Below are positions 18,401-24,400 of a stretch of 32,000 bases of DNA, in pieces. The stretch lies in contig CAKUSQ010000001.1 of NCBI GenBank assembly GCA_934691225.1, positions 90,001 to 122,000 of the forward strand, written 5' to 3'. A program made the position numbers. The stretch's first letter is position 1; each line of letters begins with the position of its first letter. Source of the DNA: an uncultured Opitutales bacterium. GTDB lineage: Bacteria > Verrucomicrobiota > Verrucomicrobiia > Opitutales > UBA9783.

Positions 18401-21400
18401 CGATGAATAATGTTCCAGCAACCATGAGTGTTATTCAAAATTATCCTATTCCTAATTACTCCTACAACTCCGACAGAGGGCAGTATGAAATTAGCGGATT
18501 TGAGGAAAAACCTATAGGTATTGAACTTAAAGTTACACCTAAAGTACAATCAGAATACATTACCTTGCAACTTGATCCATCTTTATCAGATCAAAGCGAT
18601 AGTGTCAATTTCTCAACAGGAACAGGTACAAGCGTTAACTATCCTATCATTAATCAGAAAAAAACTAGCAGTACAGTAACTATAAAAAGCGGTTACACCA
18701 TTGCCATTGGAGGACTCATATCTCAAACAAAAAGCGATAATATAACCAAAACTCCTCTGTTCGGCGATATCCCATTATTAGGAAATTTATTCACAAATAA
18801 AAACAAAAGTGATACCATCAAGAATTTACTGATATTTTTATCAGCAACACAAATCGCTTATGATGGCTCAATTATTTATCCTAATCAAATAGGTGCTAAA
18901 AACATATCGGATAAACGCATGTTCGAAATGGGCATTTCACAGAAAGATTTACCGGGTGAATTACCTTCAACCGATGATGAGAAAAAGATGTACGAAGAAA
19001 TCCAAGTTTTACAGAATAAATTGGATAATTTGCTCATGATAAAAAAAGCAAACGAATCTAAAACAACCATAAATAAAAACTTGATAAAAGAAAACAAACC
19101 TTCGCGCGTATATCAACCCGGTAAAAATCGAACAGCCCAATTAAAAAAGAATAAGGATAAAAAAGCCCACTCATAAGTGGGTCTTTTTATTTAATTTTTA
19201 CTGTAAGCCTTGACGCCATTAAAAATAGCCTGAACAAGCTTATTCTGATAACTTTCAGAATTTAGCAAAGCTGCTTCATTAGGGTTACTCAAAAAACCAC
19301 ATTCAACCAAAACACCTGGACACTTCAAGTCCTTTAAAACGCGCATGCGTCCTCTTTTAATCCCACGATCTTTCAATTTTAAAATTTTCCACAATTTAGT
19401 TTGTATGTTCCATGCCAAGTATGTGCTAACATCATCATACTTATTTACTTGAGCATACACACGATCTGAATCATTCAACGTATTACGTTCCGTTGAAGGA
19501 TGCATATGAAACGTATATGCAAATATCTCTATACCACCTATATTTTTGACATTCACATTGTTAGGATCTACGGAATTGTAATGAATGGAGATAAAAATAT
19601 CAGCCTTTTTACTATTAGCAAATGTTCCACGGTCTTCCAAAGAAAGGTCTACATCGTTCTCTCTTGTAAGGTAAACTGTATAACCCGCCAATCTAAATTT
19701 AGTTGCTAATTTCTTAGCTGTTTTCAACGTCAAATCTTTCTCTTTCAATTTCAATGCTTTATTGATAGCACCTTCAGCTTTTCCACCATGTCCAGCATCT
19801 ATAACAATAATTTTTGGAGTTTTTTTCGCAATATTTATAGGAGATAATAGCGGCTTTATTATTTTTGTTACATCCACATGACTGATATAATAACATTTTT
19901 TTAAAGACAATGGTTTTTTATAAATAAGCCTCAACCCATGACTTCCAACAACTTTCGATTCTAACGGATATGTCAAATAGACTTTTGTTCCATCAATTAC
20001 AGCTTCTTTAGAGCCTACTGTAAACGAAATAGAATGCTTTTTATTGTTTAATTGAACCTTATTCCACCAAGATGTTAACTTCAAATTATACGATGCTGCG
20101 ACATTTTTTAAATCACACTTACCTGGCACACCCCATGCAAAATTAATCCACCAACAAATGATAAAACTAATAATGCATTTACGCCTCAACATCATCATCT
20201 AATTCATCCTCTTTCTTACCCCAAATAAGGACACGCTTAGCAGCAGCCAATGGCGTAAGCAAAACAAAAATATTCCGTCCACTTAGCGTAATTTTTGCAT
20301 CCGGCATACCCACATTTTTCAAATCATCTACCATTCTTTGGACAACTTCAACACCCAATTGTGGTGTGGACATTTGCCGCCCCTTCAAATTAATGTAGAG
20401 TTTTACTTTATTTCCTTTAAACAAAAAACCTTCTGCTTGCCTCAACTTTGTCAAGTAGTCATTTTTTTCTATAGAAGCACCCAACTTAATTTCCTTCAAC
20501 TTAGCAGCGGTTGTTTTTTGAGACTTCGACTTTTTCCCTTCCTCATACATGTACTTACCAAAATCCAAAATTTTACATACGGGAGGTTGTGCTTTAGGTG
20601 AAATCTCAACCAAATCTAGTCCGGCATCCTGCGCCAACTGCAAAGCCTGATTTAACGGCAATATCCCAACTTGCTTACTATTAGCATCAATAACACGAAC
20701 TTCACGTGCACGTATTTGCTTATTTTTTCGCGGCAAATTTGAAACTTGCTTCTTATAAGGAAATTTTGATGGTTTTGTTTTTGTAGGCGGTACCATTATT
20801 TACTGATTTTTACACTTATCTATTTATAAAAAAGTATAATTTATTTTCTGTCAAAACGTTTTTATACTTTTATTGGTACTAAAACTGCTTTCATTGAAGG
20901 CATGTCTGCAACAATCACTATTTCATCTGGAACTCTATACGATTACCCTATTCCAAGCATAGGATCAGACAACATTGCAAACTCTAAGGTCGACTTTACA
21001 ACTTCAACATCCATTAAAGATATATGTGACGCATATAAAAAACTTTTTTATCCAACCGATAAATTGTCTAAAGGTGGATTGTATTACAACATATGCAACA
21101 AATTACTAGCCCAATTTAACAAAATTTTAGGAAATCGTAACTACAACTTTAACCTTAATGATGGACTTCCTCTAGAAGAGATTTTTGATGAAAACGAATT
21201 ATCAGTCAACTGCAAAGAAGGCAAAAGATCCTATCAATATTACCTAAGACAAATTATAAACAACCTAAATTCACTCAACGCTACGCTTATTAATGCACAA
21301 AATACTATAAAGCAATTAGAAAATTTAACAGCAAGCACTGAACAAAACTTTAACAATAAATCTCATTCATTGATAACCACATTAGATATTCTCGATAAAT

Positions 21401-24400
21401 CAGCGCAAGATATTATAAAAAAATTCAGTGAATATGCGGTGGTTAAACAAATTACAAATTATACAGAAACCCTCTCGTACGACATTCCCACAGATATTTC
21501 AAACCTTGATTTTAACAAATTTTTTGACGAAACAACACCAGAATCTTATGAAGTAAGCGAATCTGCTTATAAAGATTTAAATTCTGAAGAATTGTCAAAA
21601 CTTAATAATATTAAATCACTGGATGACTTACGAAATTTAAAAACGGAAAAACTATTCCGTGAACGAAAGACGATATATGCTTATGTATCCACTGATGGCA
21701 TGGCTACCAATAAATACGATTCACTTGCACGACTTGAGGTAAAATACCACACAGAAGAAAATCCAAAAGAAGGGAAAAGTTCTGAATTATCAAACATTAA
21801 ATTATTTGATGAATTAACCCTTTTAGAAAAATTAGAATACATTGTTCTCTATTACAAACATAACACAGAACCTTACATCTTCCCTAGCGATGATGTCTTT
21901 GGATATCCCTGCATAAAACCTAATGATTCCACTAGTGCCACAGAAGATACCAATGAAATTGGGAACCTAGAATTATTCTACATAGGATATATCATAAACC
22001 GAAATGGCCCTATTGATGCCTTTGCATCATTTATGGAAATAAAATCCTCTGCAATCAGACAACAAATTACACTACTTTCCTATCGTATCAAAGCATTAAA
22101 ATTTTACCTTAATCTCGTTAATCGTGGCCTTGAGGAAATGCAAAAAACCCAATCCAATGGTAAAAATCCAATACCTGTTCCTGCTTACTACATCTTACGA
22201 TATGTAGCCGCTAATACAACGCGTACTTTGATGTATTTAAAAGACAAAAACGGCAATTATCTAAAAGATAAATATGGAAAGGAACTTACAGATCCTTACA
22301 TTGTACTACAATACTCAAGCGATTCACCTTCAAAGGAATATACTAAGGAAATTAAGGATACAACTTACCACTTAACACAAGACAATAGCTACATTCTTGT
22401 AAAAGCTACAAACGATGGAATAAATGAATTTATATCTCAATGTAATAATTGTAATAAAAAGCTAGATAAGATTTTTTCAGATAAAGGAAATAATAGTTTT
22501 TCAGATTCTATTACGGGTACAAATATTTATAAAGAAGTAGTATCAGAAAACAATGGTTTAAAATTAACTTGTGAGAATTACAATGTTTTATTTTTACACT
22601 TTACAGATGAAAATTCTTCGATTAAACAACTTCCCAAAGAGCTAGAAACTAGCAAAGTTGATGTATCAAAGATAACAGGTAATTTTGCTAATAACCTAAC
22701 ATGGGAGAAAGTACCTAGCAAAGAAGAGGAAAAAGCATCTTGGACAAATTTTATAAATGCATGGAAAAGCTGCTTTGATACGTGCATTGAAAATGAAAAA
22801 TCGCAACTTGAATATGTAGAAAAATCTATTTCATCACTGCGACAAAAGATAAACACGTTTGATCAAACTAGCACAAACTTCAGAAATAAAGCTTATACTA
22901 TTTATAACAATATAATAAATAAAACAAAATAACTTATGTCAATATCACTCACTAAAATAATACAAACAGAATTGAAAAAAACCTTAGGTGCTGATGCTAA
23001 TCATATCACTGAAGAAGATATCAACCTAAGTCTAACTTTAGGAGATCAATTATCTCAAGGCAAAATACGACTTAAAGATGCACTTAATATATCTGATGAA
23101 CATATGGAGGTTCTGTACACCATCGCTTACGAATCTTATGTTCGAGGTAAATTGGAAGACGCTTACAAAACCTTTACATTAATTTGCTCTTATGATCCTA
23201 GCAAAGTAAAATACTGGGAAGGTTTAGGATTAACTCAAAAGTTGCTAAAAAAATATGACGAAGCCATCATATCGTATTTTATATTAATTCAACTCAGAGC
23301 TTTAAAAATTTCTTATTATTTGGATTTAGCCGAATGTTTCTTAAAATTAGGCCAAAAAGAACCCAGCATGCAATGTTGTGAAGCCATTATTATCATGGCG
23401 AAAGATCCAACTTATGCACAAGAAAACAAAGATGCTAACATCTGCCTTGATAAGGCTAACAAATTGCTCAAGTCATTGAAAAAATAAGAAGGAGAGATTA
23501 TCATGGGAGTTGATTTAAATCCACAAGCAGGAAATAACGCTATAAATAATGCAACAACTGAAAATTTTTCAGCTGAAACAGCAAAAACAAATGCAAAAAA
23601 ACAAGTCCATCTTGGTTTCAATAGCGTGATTCTTGATAATTATGCAGAGATTAATGAAAATATAAGTTGTGCAAAGTACACTAAAAAATTATTCAATGAA
23701 AATACACTTTTAAGACCTACATATAGATTATGTGATGCTTTAGATAAGTTAAACGATATCATCAATAGAAATTCAAATATTACACGTTTCTTTAATAAAT
23801 CAGGCGCTCACCTTACTTACCCTGAATTTGTAACAAAATGTTTTGAAAAGTTAATTAAACACAATTTCATAAAAACTTCTAAGTCTAACAAAACAAATTT
23901 CAAATCTAAAACAACGAGATCTCAAGCAAATATTTTAGGTCAAAAGACTATTAATATGCTCAAAATGTCACCTGAAGTTTTAAGTCTTTTTTGTTTATTA
24001 ATAACACAAGACTCCAAATCAAAACTTACTGATACAATAAAACAGATATTAAGTGCAAAAATTAAAGATAGGGACGCAGTTTCCAAAAAATTTCTACAAG
24101 AAACTGAAAAACAAGTTGCAGAACAAATTAAATCTGCAAAAGCTCAATCTAGATCAAAAATTTTAGGTATCTTTAAAGCCATTGGAAGCGCTGTAGCCGC
24201 AATTATTGGTGTCGCTGTAACGTCAACTTTAACCGTTCTTACAGCTGGTGGATCTACACCTTTAATGATAGCTGCTTGTGCTAGTTGCGGACTTGCTTTT
24301 GCTGGAGCCATATGTACATGCGCAAGTTCTGGATTCTCCATTGCAACAGCTTATACAGATAGTCCTAAACTTAAAGCCACATTAAACAAAATAAATATGG

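Follow-up and report, generated by a model that had tools for sequence, protein, structure and literature searches.

What kind of protein stands in front of the chaperone and translocator genes of a type III secretion system (T3SS) operon in an uncultured Opitutales bacterium? The question is raised by a stretch of 32,000 nucleotides (nt) from contig CAKUSQ010000001.1 (assembly GCA_934691225.1, positions 90,001 to 122,000), here called the window, in which an ATG-start open reading frame (ORF) at 20902..22932 on the + strand encodes a protein of 676 amino acids (aa). Judged by sequence, the 183-aa product of the next gene is a class II chaperone of the SycD/LcrH/IpgC type and the 440-aa product of the third belongs to the YopB/EspD/SseC (SctE) class of hydrophobic translocators. 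It is very likely that the 676-aa protein is secreted as a component linked to the T3SS and that its gene is co-transcribed with these two. The reading preferred here, which is given a probability of about 0.5, is that it is the secreted, soluble hydrophilic translocator or needle-tip protein, in the SctA position, of a non-flagellar T3SS and represents a new family of larger proteins. This reading rests on the position of the gene and its synteny, the predicted architecture and substrate-like features of its product, injectisome-specific partners in the same genome and eukaryote-directed cargo in a related one. The translocon operon itself is of a known kind; the family at its head is new by every sequence test applied, is unusually large and paralogous, and would have the 676-aa protein as its founding member.

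The operon and the protein at its head

The features of the operon are the following, residue numbers being those of the 676-aa protein.

20797..20901, + strand: AT-rich intergenic region of 105 nt between the divergent infC and the operon, presumed promoter and ribosome-binding site
20902..22932, + strand: gene of the 676-aa protein, candidate SctA-position hydrophilic translocator or needle-tip-type protein (ORF, homologues, synteny, AlphaFold2 model)
20902..21009, + strand: residues 1-36, candidate type III export signal, uncharged (to Asp14), Ser/Thr/Ile-rich and non-helical, with Y-x-Y-P-x-P at ~13-18
21214..21429, + strand: residues 105-176, predicted antiparallel helical hairpin (helices 105-140 and 147-176; AlphaFold2 model, heptad periodicity)
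21430..21795, + strand: residues 177-298, beta-rich insert of hypervariable length (38-178 aa over 51 family members)
21796..22158, + strand: residues 299-419, most conserved core (invariant columns, AlphaFold2 model), with the motif LFDELTLLEKLxYI, an FPxDxxxGYPC loop and a long helix at ~352-419
22159..22722, + strand: residues 420-607, mixed alpha/beta domain (AlphaFold2 model) with a second hypervariable stretch at 521-570
22723..22926, + strand: residues 608-675, conserved C-terminal helix of 68 residues (SLRxKIxTFD...FRxKAY)
22936..23487, + strand: SycD/LcrH/IpgC-type class II (tetratricopeptide repeat, TPR) T3SS chaperone, 183 aa (TIGR02552, PDB, tblastn, hhalign)
23503..24825, + strand: YopB/EspD/SseC-type (SctE) hydrophobic translocator, 440 aa (hydrophobic segments at ~219-325, hhalign, phmmer)
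24848..24878, + strand: terminator-like hairpin with a 13-bp stem, closing the three-gene operon

The three genes are closely packed. The chaperone gene starts at 22936, which leaves only the 3-nt gap already pointed out in an earlier annotation made from the sequence alone (the first-pass annotation), the translocator gene starts at 23503, and no terminator-like site was found between the three. GAAGG stands 3 nt 5' of the ATG of the 676-aa gene; no site in 20797..20901 passed a scan for the sigma-70 consensus. The G+C content of the window is ~35% and that of the cassette is lower, at 30-31%.

Both neighbours could be identified. The chaperone matched TIGR02552 with an E-value of 3.7e-27 over 132 of the 136 model positions, its 94.7 bits lying below the cut-off of 104.8, and the top matches in a sequence search of the PDB were SycD (1.5e-11), IpgC, AcrH and PcrH. 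A tblastn search of plasmids matched 261 records, and every annotated one among the 30 matches listed was sicA/ipgC/lcrH/acrH or a chaperone of the SycD/LcrH family. Comparison of the chaperone family with LcrH by hhalign gave a probability of 98.9%. For the translocator family the same procedure gave 95.6% against YopB and 60.6% against EspD, and phmmer matched the 440-aa protein to EspD at 7.9e-6; its match to PF04888 (E 0.0037) was below the cut-off, and the orthologues gave unmarked SseC matches in Pfam.

The 676-aa protein is predicted to be soluble. Its highest Kyte-Doolittle value in any 19-residue window is 0.72, compared with 2.14 in the downstream translocator, which leaves no transmembrane helix, and a Sec-type N-terminus is also lacking (no basic n-region, 10-residue hydrophobicity maximum 1.05); the absence of signal peptide and membrane segment noted in the first pass was therefore borne out. 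Residues 1-24 are the N-terminal string quoted there, which is indeed rich in Ser, Thr and Ile with Asp14 as the first charge. In the 51 family members examined the N-terminus likewise begins with MS and continues as S/T/N/I/V-rich sequence. The two heptad regions reported earlier map to residues 116-150 and 635-676 and were both confirmed, each of the four long helices showing more hydrophobic periodicity at 3.5 residues than shuffled sequences (of 2000 shuffled versions, a proportion of 0.007-0.03 matched or surpassed it), but the longest and most conserved helix (~352-419) had been missed.

The family, its synteny and its predicted structure

The description of the 676-aa protein as an orphan can no longer be maintained. 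Fifteen homologues, at 32-100% identity and none of them named, came from a word-indexed search; exhaustive searching with a profile yielded 100 representative clusters (at 50% identity), of which 66 had E-values below 1e-30. Paralogues are present in addition. Data with one genome per species held 17 loci with relatives (the related loci are numbered L001 onwards), of which 16 were in metagenome-assembled genomes (MAGs) of Opitutales, Puniceicoccales or Verrucomicrobia from human gut, rumen and the gut of higher termites, and the seventeenth was a 2.5-kb contig binned as Eubacteriales. A scan of metagenomes contributed six further loci only.

The order of big protein, chaperone and translocator recurs in every related locus with enough downstream DNA (L001-L018, L024, L025, L041). 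Homologues widespread in genomes without a T3SS and never linked to the chaperone gene had been named in the first pass as something that would speak against a secreted component; the linkage found was invariable wherever downstream DNA was present. What flanks the cassette varies among loci and includes infC and an amidase gene (as in the window), a lipase gene, housekeeping genes and a flagellar operon. The position upstream of the chaperone had been considered unusual for a translocator, a view that cannot be upheld because the annotated Yersinia order is lcrG-lcrV-lcrH-yopB-yopD, so that the 676-aa gene occupies the slot of lcrV.

Conservation within the family is uneven. The helix at ~352-419 is constant at 67-69 residues across the 51 aligned members and the C-terminal helix is of invariant length, ~69 residues, in full-length members, whereas the segments corresponding to 177-298 and 521-570 span 38-178 and 16-166 residues respectively. 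Giant relatives of 999-1765 aa (P0040, P0042, P0053 and P0057) carry long repeat arrays at the position of the beta insert; the repeat is ~30-40 residues long with the pattern Y-x-R-D-x-x-G-Y-L-I-D-x-x-G-x-R-I, and these repeats resemble exposed modules of the adhesin type.

Many genomes also contain a second cassette, in which two paralogues of the 676-aa protein stand in tandem after a helical protein of ~118 aa. Paralogues throughout the family share the N-terminal part (Y-x-Y-P-x-P; C-x-E-G-x-x-A-Y-x-F-Y-L), the core and the C-terminal helix, and are strongly divergent between them. This cassette was seen at L022 7555-11839, where a 77-aa ORF precedes it, and at L001 668-4709 on the - strand, and also in L018, L021, L028, L029, L006 and L016. 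Its gene order recalls flgM-flgN-flgK-flgL, or a small chaperone with its substrates, neither being backed by family matches; identities as FlgM and FlgN for the small proteins were not supported by the family scans.

By sequence the family fits no known family. Scans of the 676-aa protein against Pfam, NCBIfam and PHROGs gave coiled-coil noise only, with no catalytic domain, in keeping with the earlier remark that no motif could be recognised, and a Pfam scan of the 51 members gave the same result. A PDB profile search returned nothing relevant, its one product being a chance match to ArgRS (E 0.007). When the family was compared by hhalign with 26 T3SS and flagellar proteins from annotated records of Yersinia, Shigella and E. 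coli, no probability rose above 1.1%; the chaperone and translocator families, as positive controls by the same procedure, reached 95-99% against their counterparts. A phage tail or tape-measure origin was rejected, the lone weak match (0.0068) falling in the coiled-coil hairpin and no prophage context being present.

An AlphaFold2 model built with 15 sequences had a pLDDT (predicted local distance difference test) of 71.5 and a predicted template modelling score (pTM) of 0.46, and its Foldseek list was uninformative; with 51 sequences these values were 89.6 and 0.81. The latter model begins with a non-helical stretch (1-37) and short helices, continues with the hairpin 105-140/147-176, the beta-rich segment 177-298 and a helix at 307-320 with the GYPC loop, and ends with a long helix at ~358-418, a mixed alpha/beta region at ~426-600 and the 68-residue C-terminal helix 608-675. 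This predicted architecture resembles the axial or tip-like plan of T3SS proteins, a likeness of plan and not of homology.

Secretion-system context and alternative readings

Evidence for a secretion system comes from elsewhere in the same genome. A scaffold of 410,860 bp (L038, L039), in which the cassette DNA is 100% identical to that of the window, extends beyond its left edge, and ~7.6 kb past that edge an operon (L038 17554-19329) encodes a protein of 374 aa, TyeA (92 aa) and a SycN-like chaperone (122 aa). TyeA matched PF09059 at 2.8e-13 and TIGR02511 at 1.6e-9, both above the cut-offs, and PDB chain 1xl3_C at 7.8e-4; the SycN-like chaperone matched PF21665 at 1.1e-7. Family scans gave no match for the 374-aa protein, which is a YopN/SctW-like candidate. 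YopN, TyeA and SycN form the gatekeeper module of Ysc-type injectisomes, a module for which no flagellar counterpart is known. This operon was the sole apparatus-side T3SS evidence found for the organism of the window.

Cargo is represented in a relative from the human gut. In L008, a Hadza human-gut Opitutales MAG, a co-directional run consists of a CesT chaperone, an IpgD/SopB-like inositol phosphatase, the big protein, the chaperone, the translocator and a STAS protein, the first two lying directly upstream of the big gene at 1266-4009. The 751-aa phosphatase matched PF05925 (1.7e-18) and NF011905 (6.5e-26), and Shigella IpgD by phmmer (8.3e-10). The presence of such an effector in the cassette operon points to eukaryotic (phosphoinositide) targets.

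Two further features of the window may bear on its secretion systems.

2992..3477, - strand: CesT/SicP-family class I T3SS chaperone (PF05932, E 3.4e-18, above cut-off)
11992..12198, + strand: Ser/Asn-rich ORF of 68 aa with 36% identity to the small ORF preceding the paralogue cassette in L022

The CesT/SicP gene, whose identical copy in L038 matched NF011857 SicP at 1.1e-19, stands alone among housekeeping genes (CDP-alcohol phosphatidyltransferase, dapA), unlinked to the operon, which suggests that the T3SS genes are scattered, as in Chlamydiae. Family scans gave no match for the 68-aa ORF, which may be a small T3SS substrate or regulator. The window also contains a type IV pilus cluster at 14014-19176 (+), with a prepilin bearing an N-methylation motif, four genes of PilM/N/O/P size without family matches and a PilQ-type secretin, which is no SctC. 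A fusion protein encoded at 10578-11927 (+) joins a diadenylate cyclase (DAC domain) with a phosphotransferase system EIIA-2 domain and a sensor domain of the DacZ_P type; for a c-di-AMP synthase this architecture is unusual.

From these elements a sequence of events may be proposed for the preferred reading, that of a tip protein. The three cassette genes would be transcribed together, and the 676-aa protein would be directed to the export gate by its uncharged, Ser/Thr/Ile-rich N-terminus. Premature assembly in the cytoplasm may be prevented by the N-terminal hairpin or by the neighbouring TPR chaperone. Once the protein is outside the cell, its two helices of 68 residues, which are constant in length, would form a stalk of ~100 Angstrom that docks on the end of the needle, with the hypervariable beta inserts directed at the target cell. 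The assembly would then be the platform for insertion of the YopB/SseC-like translocator into a eukaryotic membrane, a step controlled by the YopN/TyeA-type gatekeeper. That the protein is secreted, sits at the tip and acts as a platform is what we infer, and it would probably be the exposed outer part of a cell-injection device in a small-genome gut Verrucomicrobium.

A number of points weigh against this reading. Known tips are only half as large as this protein, and none of their families was reached by sequence: LcrV (PF04792) gave no match to the 676-aa protein at E-values up to 1, was outside the 25 families matching most of the 51 members and had an hhalign probability of 1.1% for Yersinia LcrV; IpaD (PF06511) gave neither a Pfam nor a phmmer match and 0.7% for the Shigella protein; EspA (PF03433) gave no Pfam match and 0.2%. 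The structure search advised in the first pass, made by Foldseek with the 51-sequence model, found nothing significant in the PDB (best E 0.055). The weak matches lean to flagellar axial proteins over tips, ~30 of the 46 chains listed being FlgK, FlgL, flagellin or cap and junction complexes (TM-scores at or below 0.42) and two being IpaD. The IpaD chains had target-normalised TM-scores of 0.42-0.46, and over the lists of both models the matches to IpaD/SipD had E-values of 1.2-8.7 and scores of 0.28-0.46; none of these matches is significant. No small LcrG-like gene lies upstream in the window, where the 105-nt intergenic region is followed by the divergent infC, and no second hydrophobic translocator (SctB) was found adjoining the cassette. 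Several paralogues per genome, including the separate cassette of the 118-aa protein and two paralogues, are atypical of tips. No injectisome basal-body, needle or export-gate genes were seen in the window or in the related-locus DNA examined, and searches by regular expression and phmmer for SctN, SctV, SctU, SctC and SctJ found only flagellar FliI, FliF and the type IV pilus secretin; the apparatus is deduced from TyeA, SycN, CesT, the chaperone and the translocator only. Finally, two loci, L011 (UBA1183) and L041, have the cassette as the closing part of a flagellar operon, with only 3 nt between fliO and its first gene.

The last observation bears on the alternative that survives best, which is nonetheless unlikely: that the 676-aa protein is axial and of the flagellar type, having diverged from hook-associated proteins (HAPs), flagellin or the cap, and is exported by the flagellar T3SS and assembled at the hook, with translocon genes that are co-regulated with the flagellum or served by it. 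The flagellar operon in question comprises a rod gene, fliE, fliF, G, H, I, J, two unknown genes, flgD, flgE and fliL, M, N, O (the rod gene and fliE were seen in L041; L011 begins within fliF). It spans L011 91-14283 and L041 1412-17383, the cassette standing where fliPQR-flhBA would be expected; in both loci a STAS gene follows the cassette, and the big protein of L041 is 40% identical to that of the window. The lean of the weak structural matches, the paralogue cassette (small ORF, 118-aa helical protein and two paralogues) that mimics flgM-flgN-flgK-flgL and sugar genes near the cassettes in L008 and L022 all favour a flagellar role. These sugar genes are of PseB-like (Polysacc_synt_2) and NeuB-like nonulosonic-acid type (L008 242-1279, L022 1868-2923) and hint at glycosylation of Ser/Thr-rich secreted proteins, as in some flagellins. 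Against this, no Flagellin, FlgK or FlgL profile was found in the 51 members, and among the Flg_bb_rod, Flg_bbr_C, Flagellin_N/C and FliD profiles only FliD_N matched, in three members and with E-values of at least 0.061, although FlgE, FlgD and FliE of the same clade are easily recognised by profiles. The hhalign probabilities against E. coli FlgK, FlgL, FliC and FliD were at or below 0.4%, and the N-terminal 37 residues, predicted to be non-helical and containing proline, are unlike an axial D0 helix. Most loci have no flagellar neighbours.

The distribution of flagellar genes argues in the same direction. Of the 23 clade-specific clusters obtained with a profile of FlgE, none was on the 847,666-bp contig of the window or on the contigs of its nearest relatives, so that the lineage of the window is probably without a flagellar hook, yet has the cassette and the injectisome-specific gatekeeper with TyeA. 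A search with FliI for a T3SS ATPase gave at least 120 matches, those listed all being at 56% identity or more. In L032 and L040 fliO is followed by a kinase gene and a Lipase_3 gene, the lipase being homologous to one encoded immediately before the big gene in L001, L018 and L021, and in L030 the flagellar operon is without cassette or lipase appendix. The lipase (~500 aa; L001 4855-6357, L018 7171-8676, L021 942-2447, L032 13406-14735, L040 15704-17254) is a candidate effector linking the big-gene and fliO contexts. In the sister sub-clade of L011 and L041 the cassette would be transcribed with flagellar genes, an arrangement equally compatible with co-regulation, shared export or mere operon fusion. 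It is a speculative and improbable extension that the family is an evolutionary relict connecting the distal axial proteins of flagella (hook-associated proteins and flagellin) with injectisome tips, the translocon of L011 and L041 being exported by, or strictly co-regulated with, the flagellar T3SS as a flagellum-linked host-cell translocon.

The first-pass annotation had offered an effector, a replacement for the tip protein and a second translocator as possible roles, and of these the tip replacement fits best. That the protein is a translocated effector, or a surface adhesin or toxin that merely shares an operon with translocon genes, would agree with the resemblance of its N-terminus to a type III secretion signal, with the hypervariable middles and the repeat arrays of giants of up to 1765 aa, as in host-interaction proteins, and with the effector-type genes (IpgD-like, Lipase_3) adjoining the cassette in some genomes. 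It is also improbable, since the length-invariant helices, the universal synteny beside the chaperone-translocator pair and the paralogues with conserved ends and hypervariable middles speak for a structural role; the family scans revealed neither a catalytic nor a host-mimicry domain, and class II chaperones are known to serve translocators, not effectors.

A stand-in for the minor hydrophobic translocator SctB (YopD, IpaC, EspB), acting as pore partner of the 440-aa protein, would explain why only one hydrophobic translocator gene is present per cassette in all loci, and the two proteins share an operon and presumably the class II chaperone. This must be considered quite unlikely because the protein has no hydrophobic segment (the maximum of 0.72 given above) and no similarity to YopD, IpaC or EspB (hhalign at or below 0.3%); moreover its gene lies upstream of the chaperone and major translocator genes, whereas yopD and ipaC lie downstream. 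Very improbable is a non-secreted cytoplasmic coiled-coil regulator or scaffold of the gatekeeper, ruler or sorting type, for although family-less coiled-coil proteins are common among T3SS cytoplasmic regulators and secretion of the 676-aa protein is a prediction only, a separate gatekeeper operon is present, the N-terminus is substrate-like, and hypervariable inserts and repeat-bearing giants are hard to reconcile with a scaffold.

Significance and comparison with known systems

The tip or hydrophilic translocator is the exposed, antigenic, host-sensing end of the injectisome and is represented by few, unrelated-looking families; to our knowledge no tip is known for some T3SSs. If the tip reading is true, these would be joined by a further class, formed by a large new family at this position whose exposed inserts are hypervariable. 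Gut Opitutales and Puniceicoccales occur in humans, ruminants and termites, and the presence of the cassette, of gatekeeper genes and of the IpgD/SopB-like effector indicates that they inject proteins into eukaryotic cells, a lifestyle that would be new in so far as literature searches found no report of a T3SS in these gut lineages. The HAP/flagellin-like architecture and the operon fusion would also provide a test case for whether distal parts of injectisomes arose from or alongside flagellar ones.

Compared with the flagellar axial proteins (FlgK, FlgL, flagellin, FliD), the family has in common conserved ends, predicted here to be helical, around hypervariable inserts, the predominance of these proteins in the weak Foldseek list, a paralogue cassette with a small helical protein in front and the L011/L041 fusion. 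It differs in matching none of their profiles convincingly (Flg_bb_rod, Flagellin_N/C, FliD), in its non-helical, proline-containing N-terminus and in a genome that has an injectisome gatekeeper and no detectable FlgE.

EspA and SseB, coiled-coil proteins exported by their T3SS, lengthen the needle and assist the insertion of EspD and SseC. The order in Salmonella pathogenicity island 2 is sseB-sscA (TPR chaperone)-sseC, and in the annotated record of the locus of enterocyte effacement espA directly precedes espD, arrangements to which that of the window is similar. EspA is only 192 aa long and, as stated, without profile similarity to the family (hhalign 0.2%).

With IpaD, SipD and BipD the predicted model may share the order of hairpin, long coiled coil and mixed alpha/beta distal domain, and the N-terminal hairpin of IpaD is a self-chaperoning domain. 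The differences lie in the Foldseek E-values above 1, the hhalign value of 0.7%, the doubled size and the gene order, ipaD following ipaB and ipaC in the annotated record of Shigella instead of standing upstream of the chaperone gene.

LcrV and PcrV offer the closest parallel in gene order. They differ from the 676-aa protein in size (324 aa for the known protein) and show no sequence or profile similarity to it; the 676-aa gene has neither an LcrG-like gene upstream (the 118-aa helical protein precedes the paralogue cassette only, in other loci) nor a yopD-like gene downstream, and its family has the extra beta-rich hypervariable insert and several paralogues per genome. The likeness is that in both cases the gene lies directly upstream of a SycD/LcrH-type chaperone gene followed by a YopB-type translocator gene, and that the product is a soluble protein of the secreted type, predicted here to have a globular alpha/beta domain set between a long central helix and a long C-terminal one. 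The split gatekeeper operon of the window genome, with YopN-like, TyeA and SycN-like products, is a further likeness to the Ysc family.

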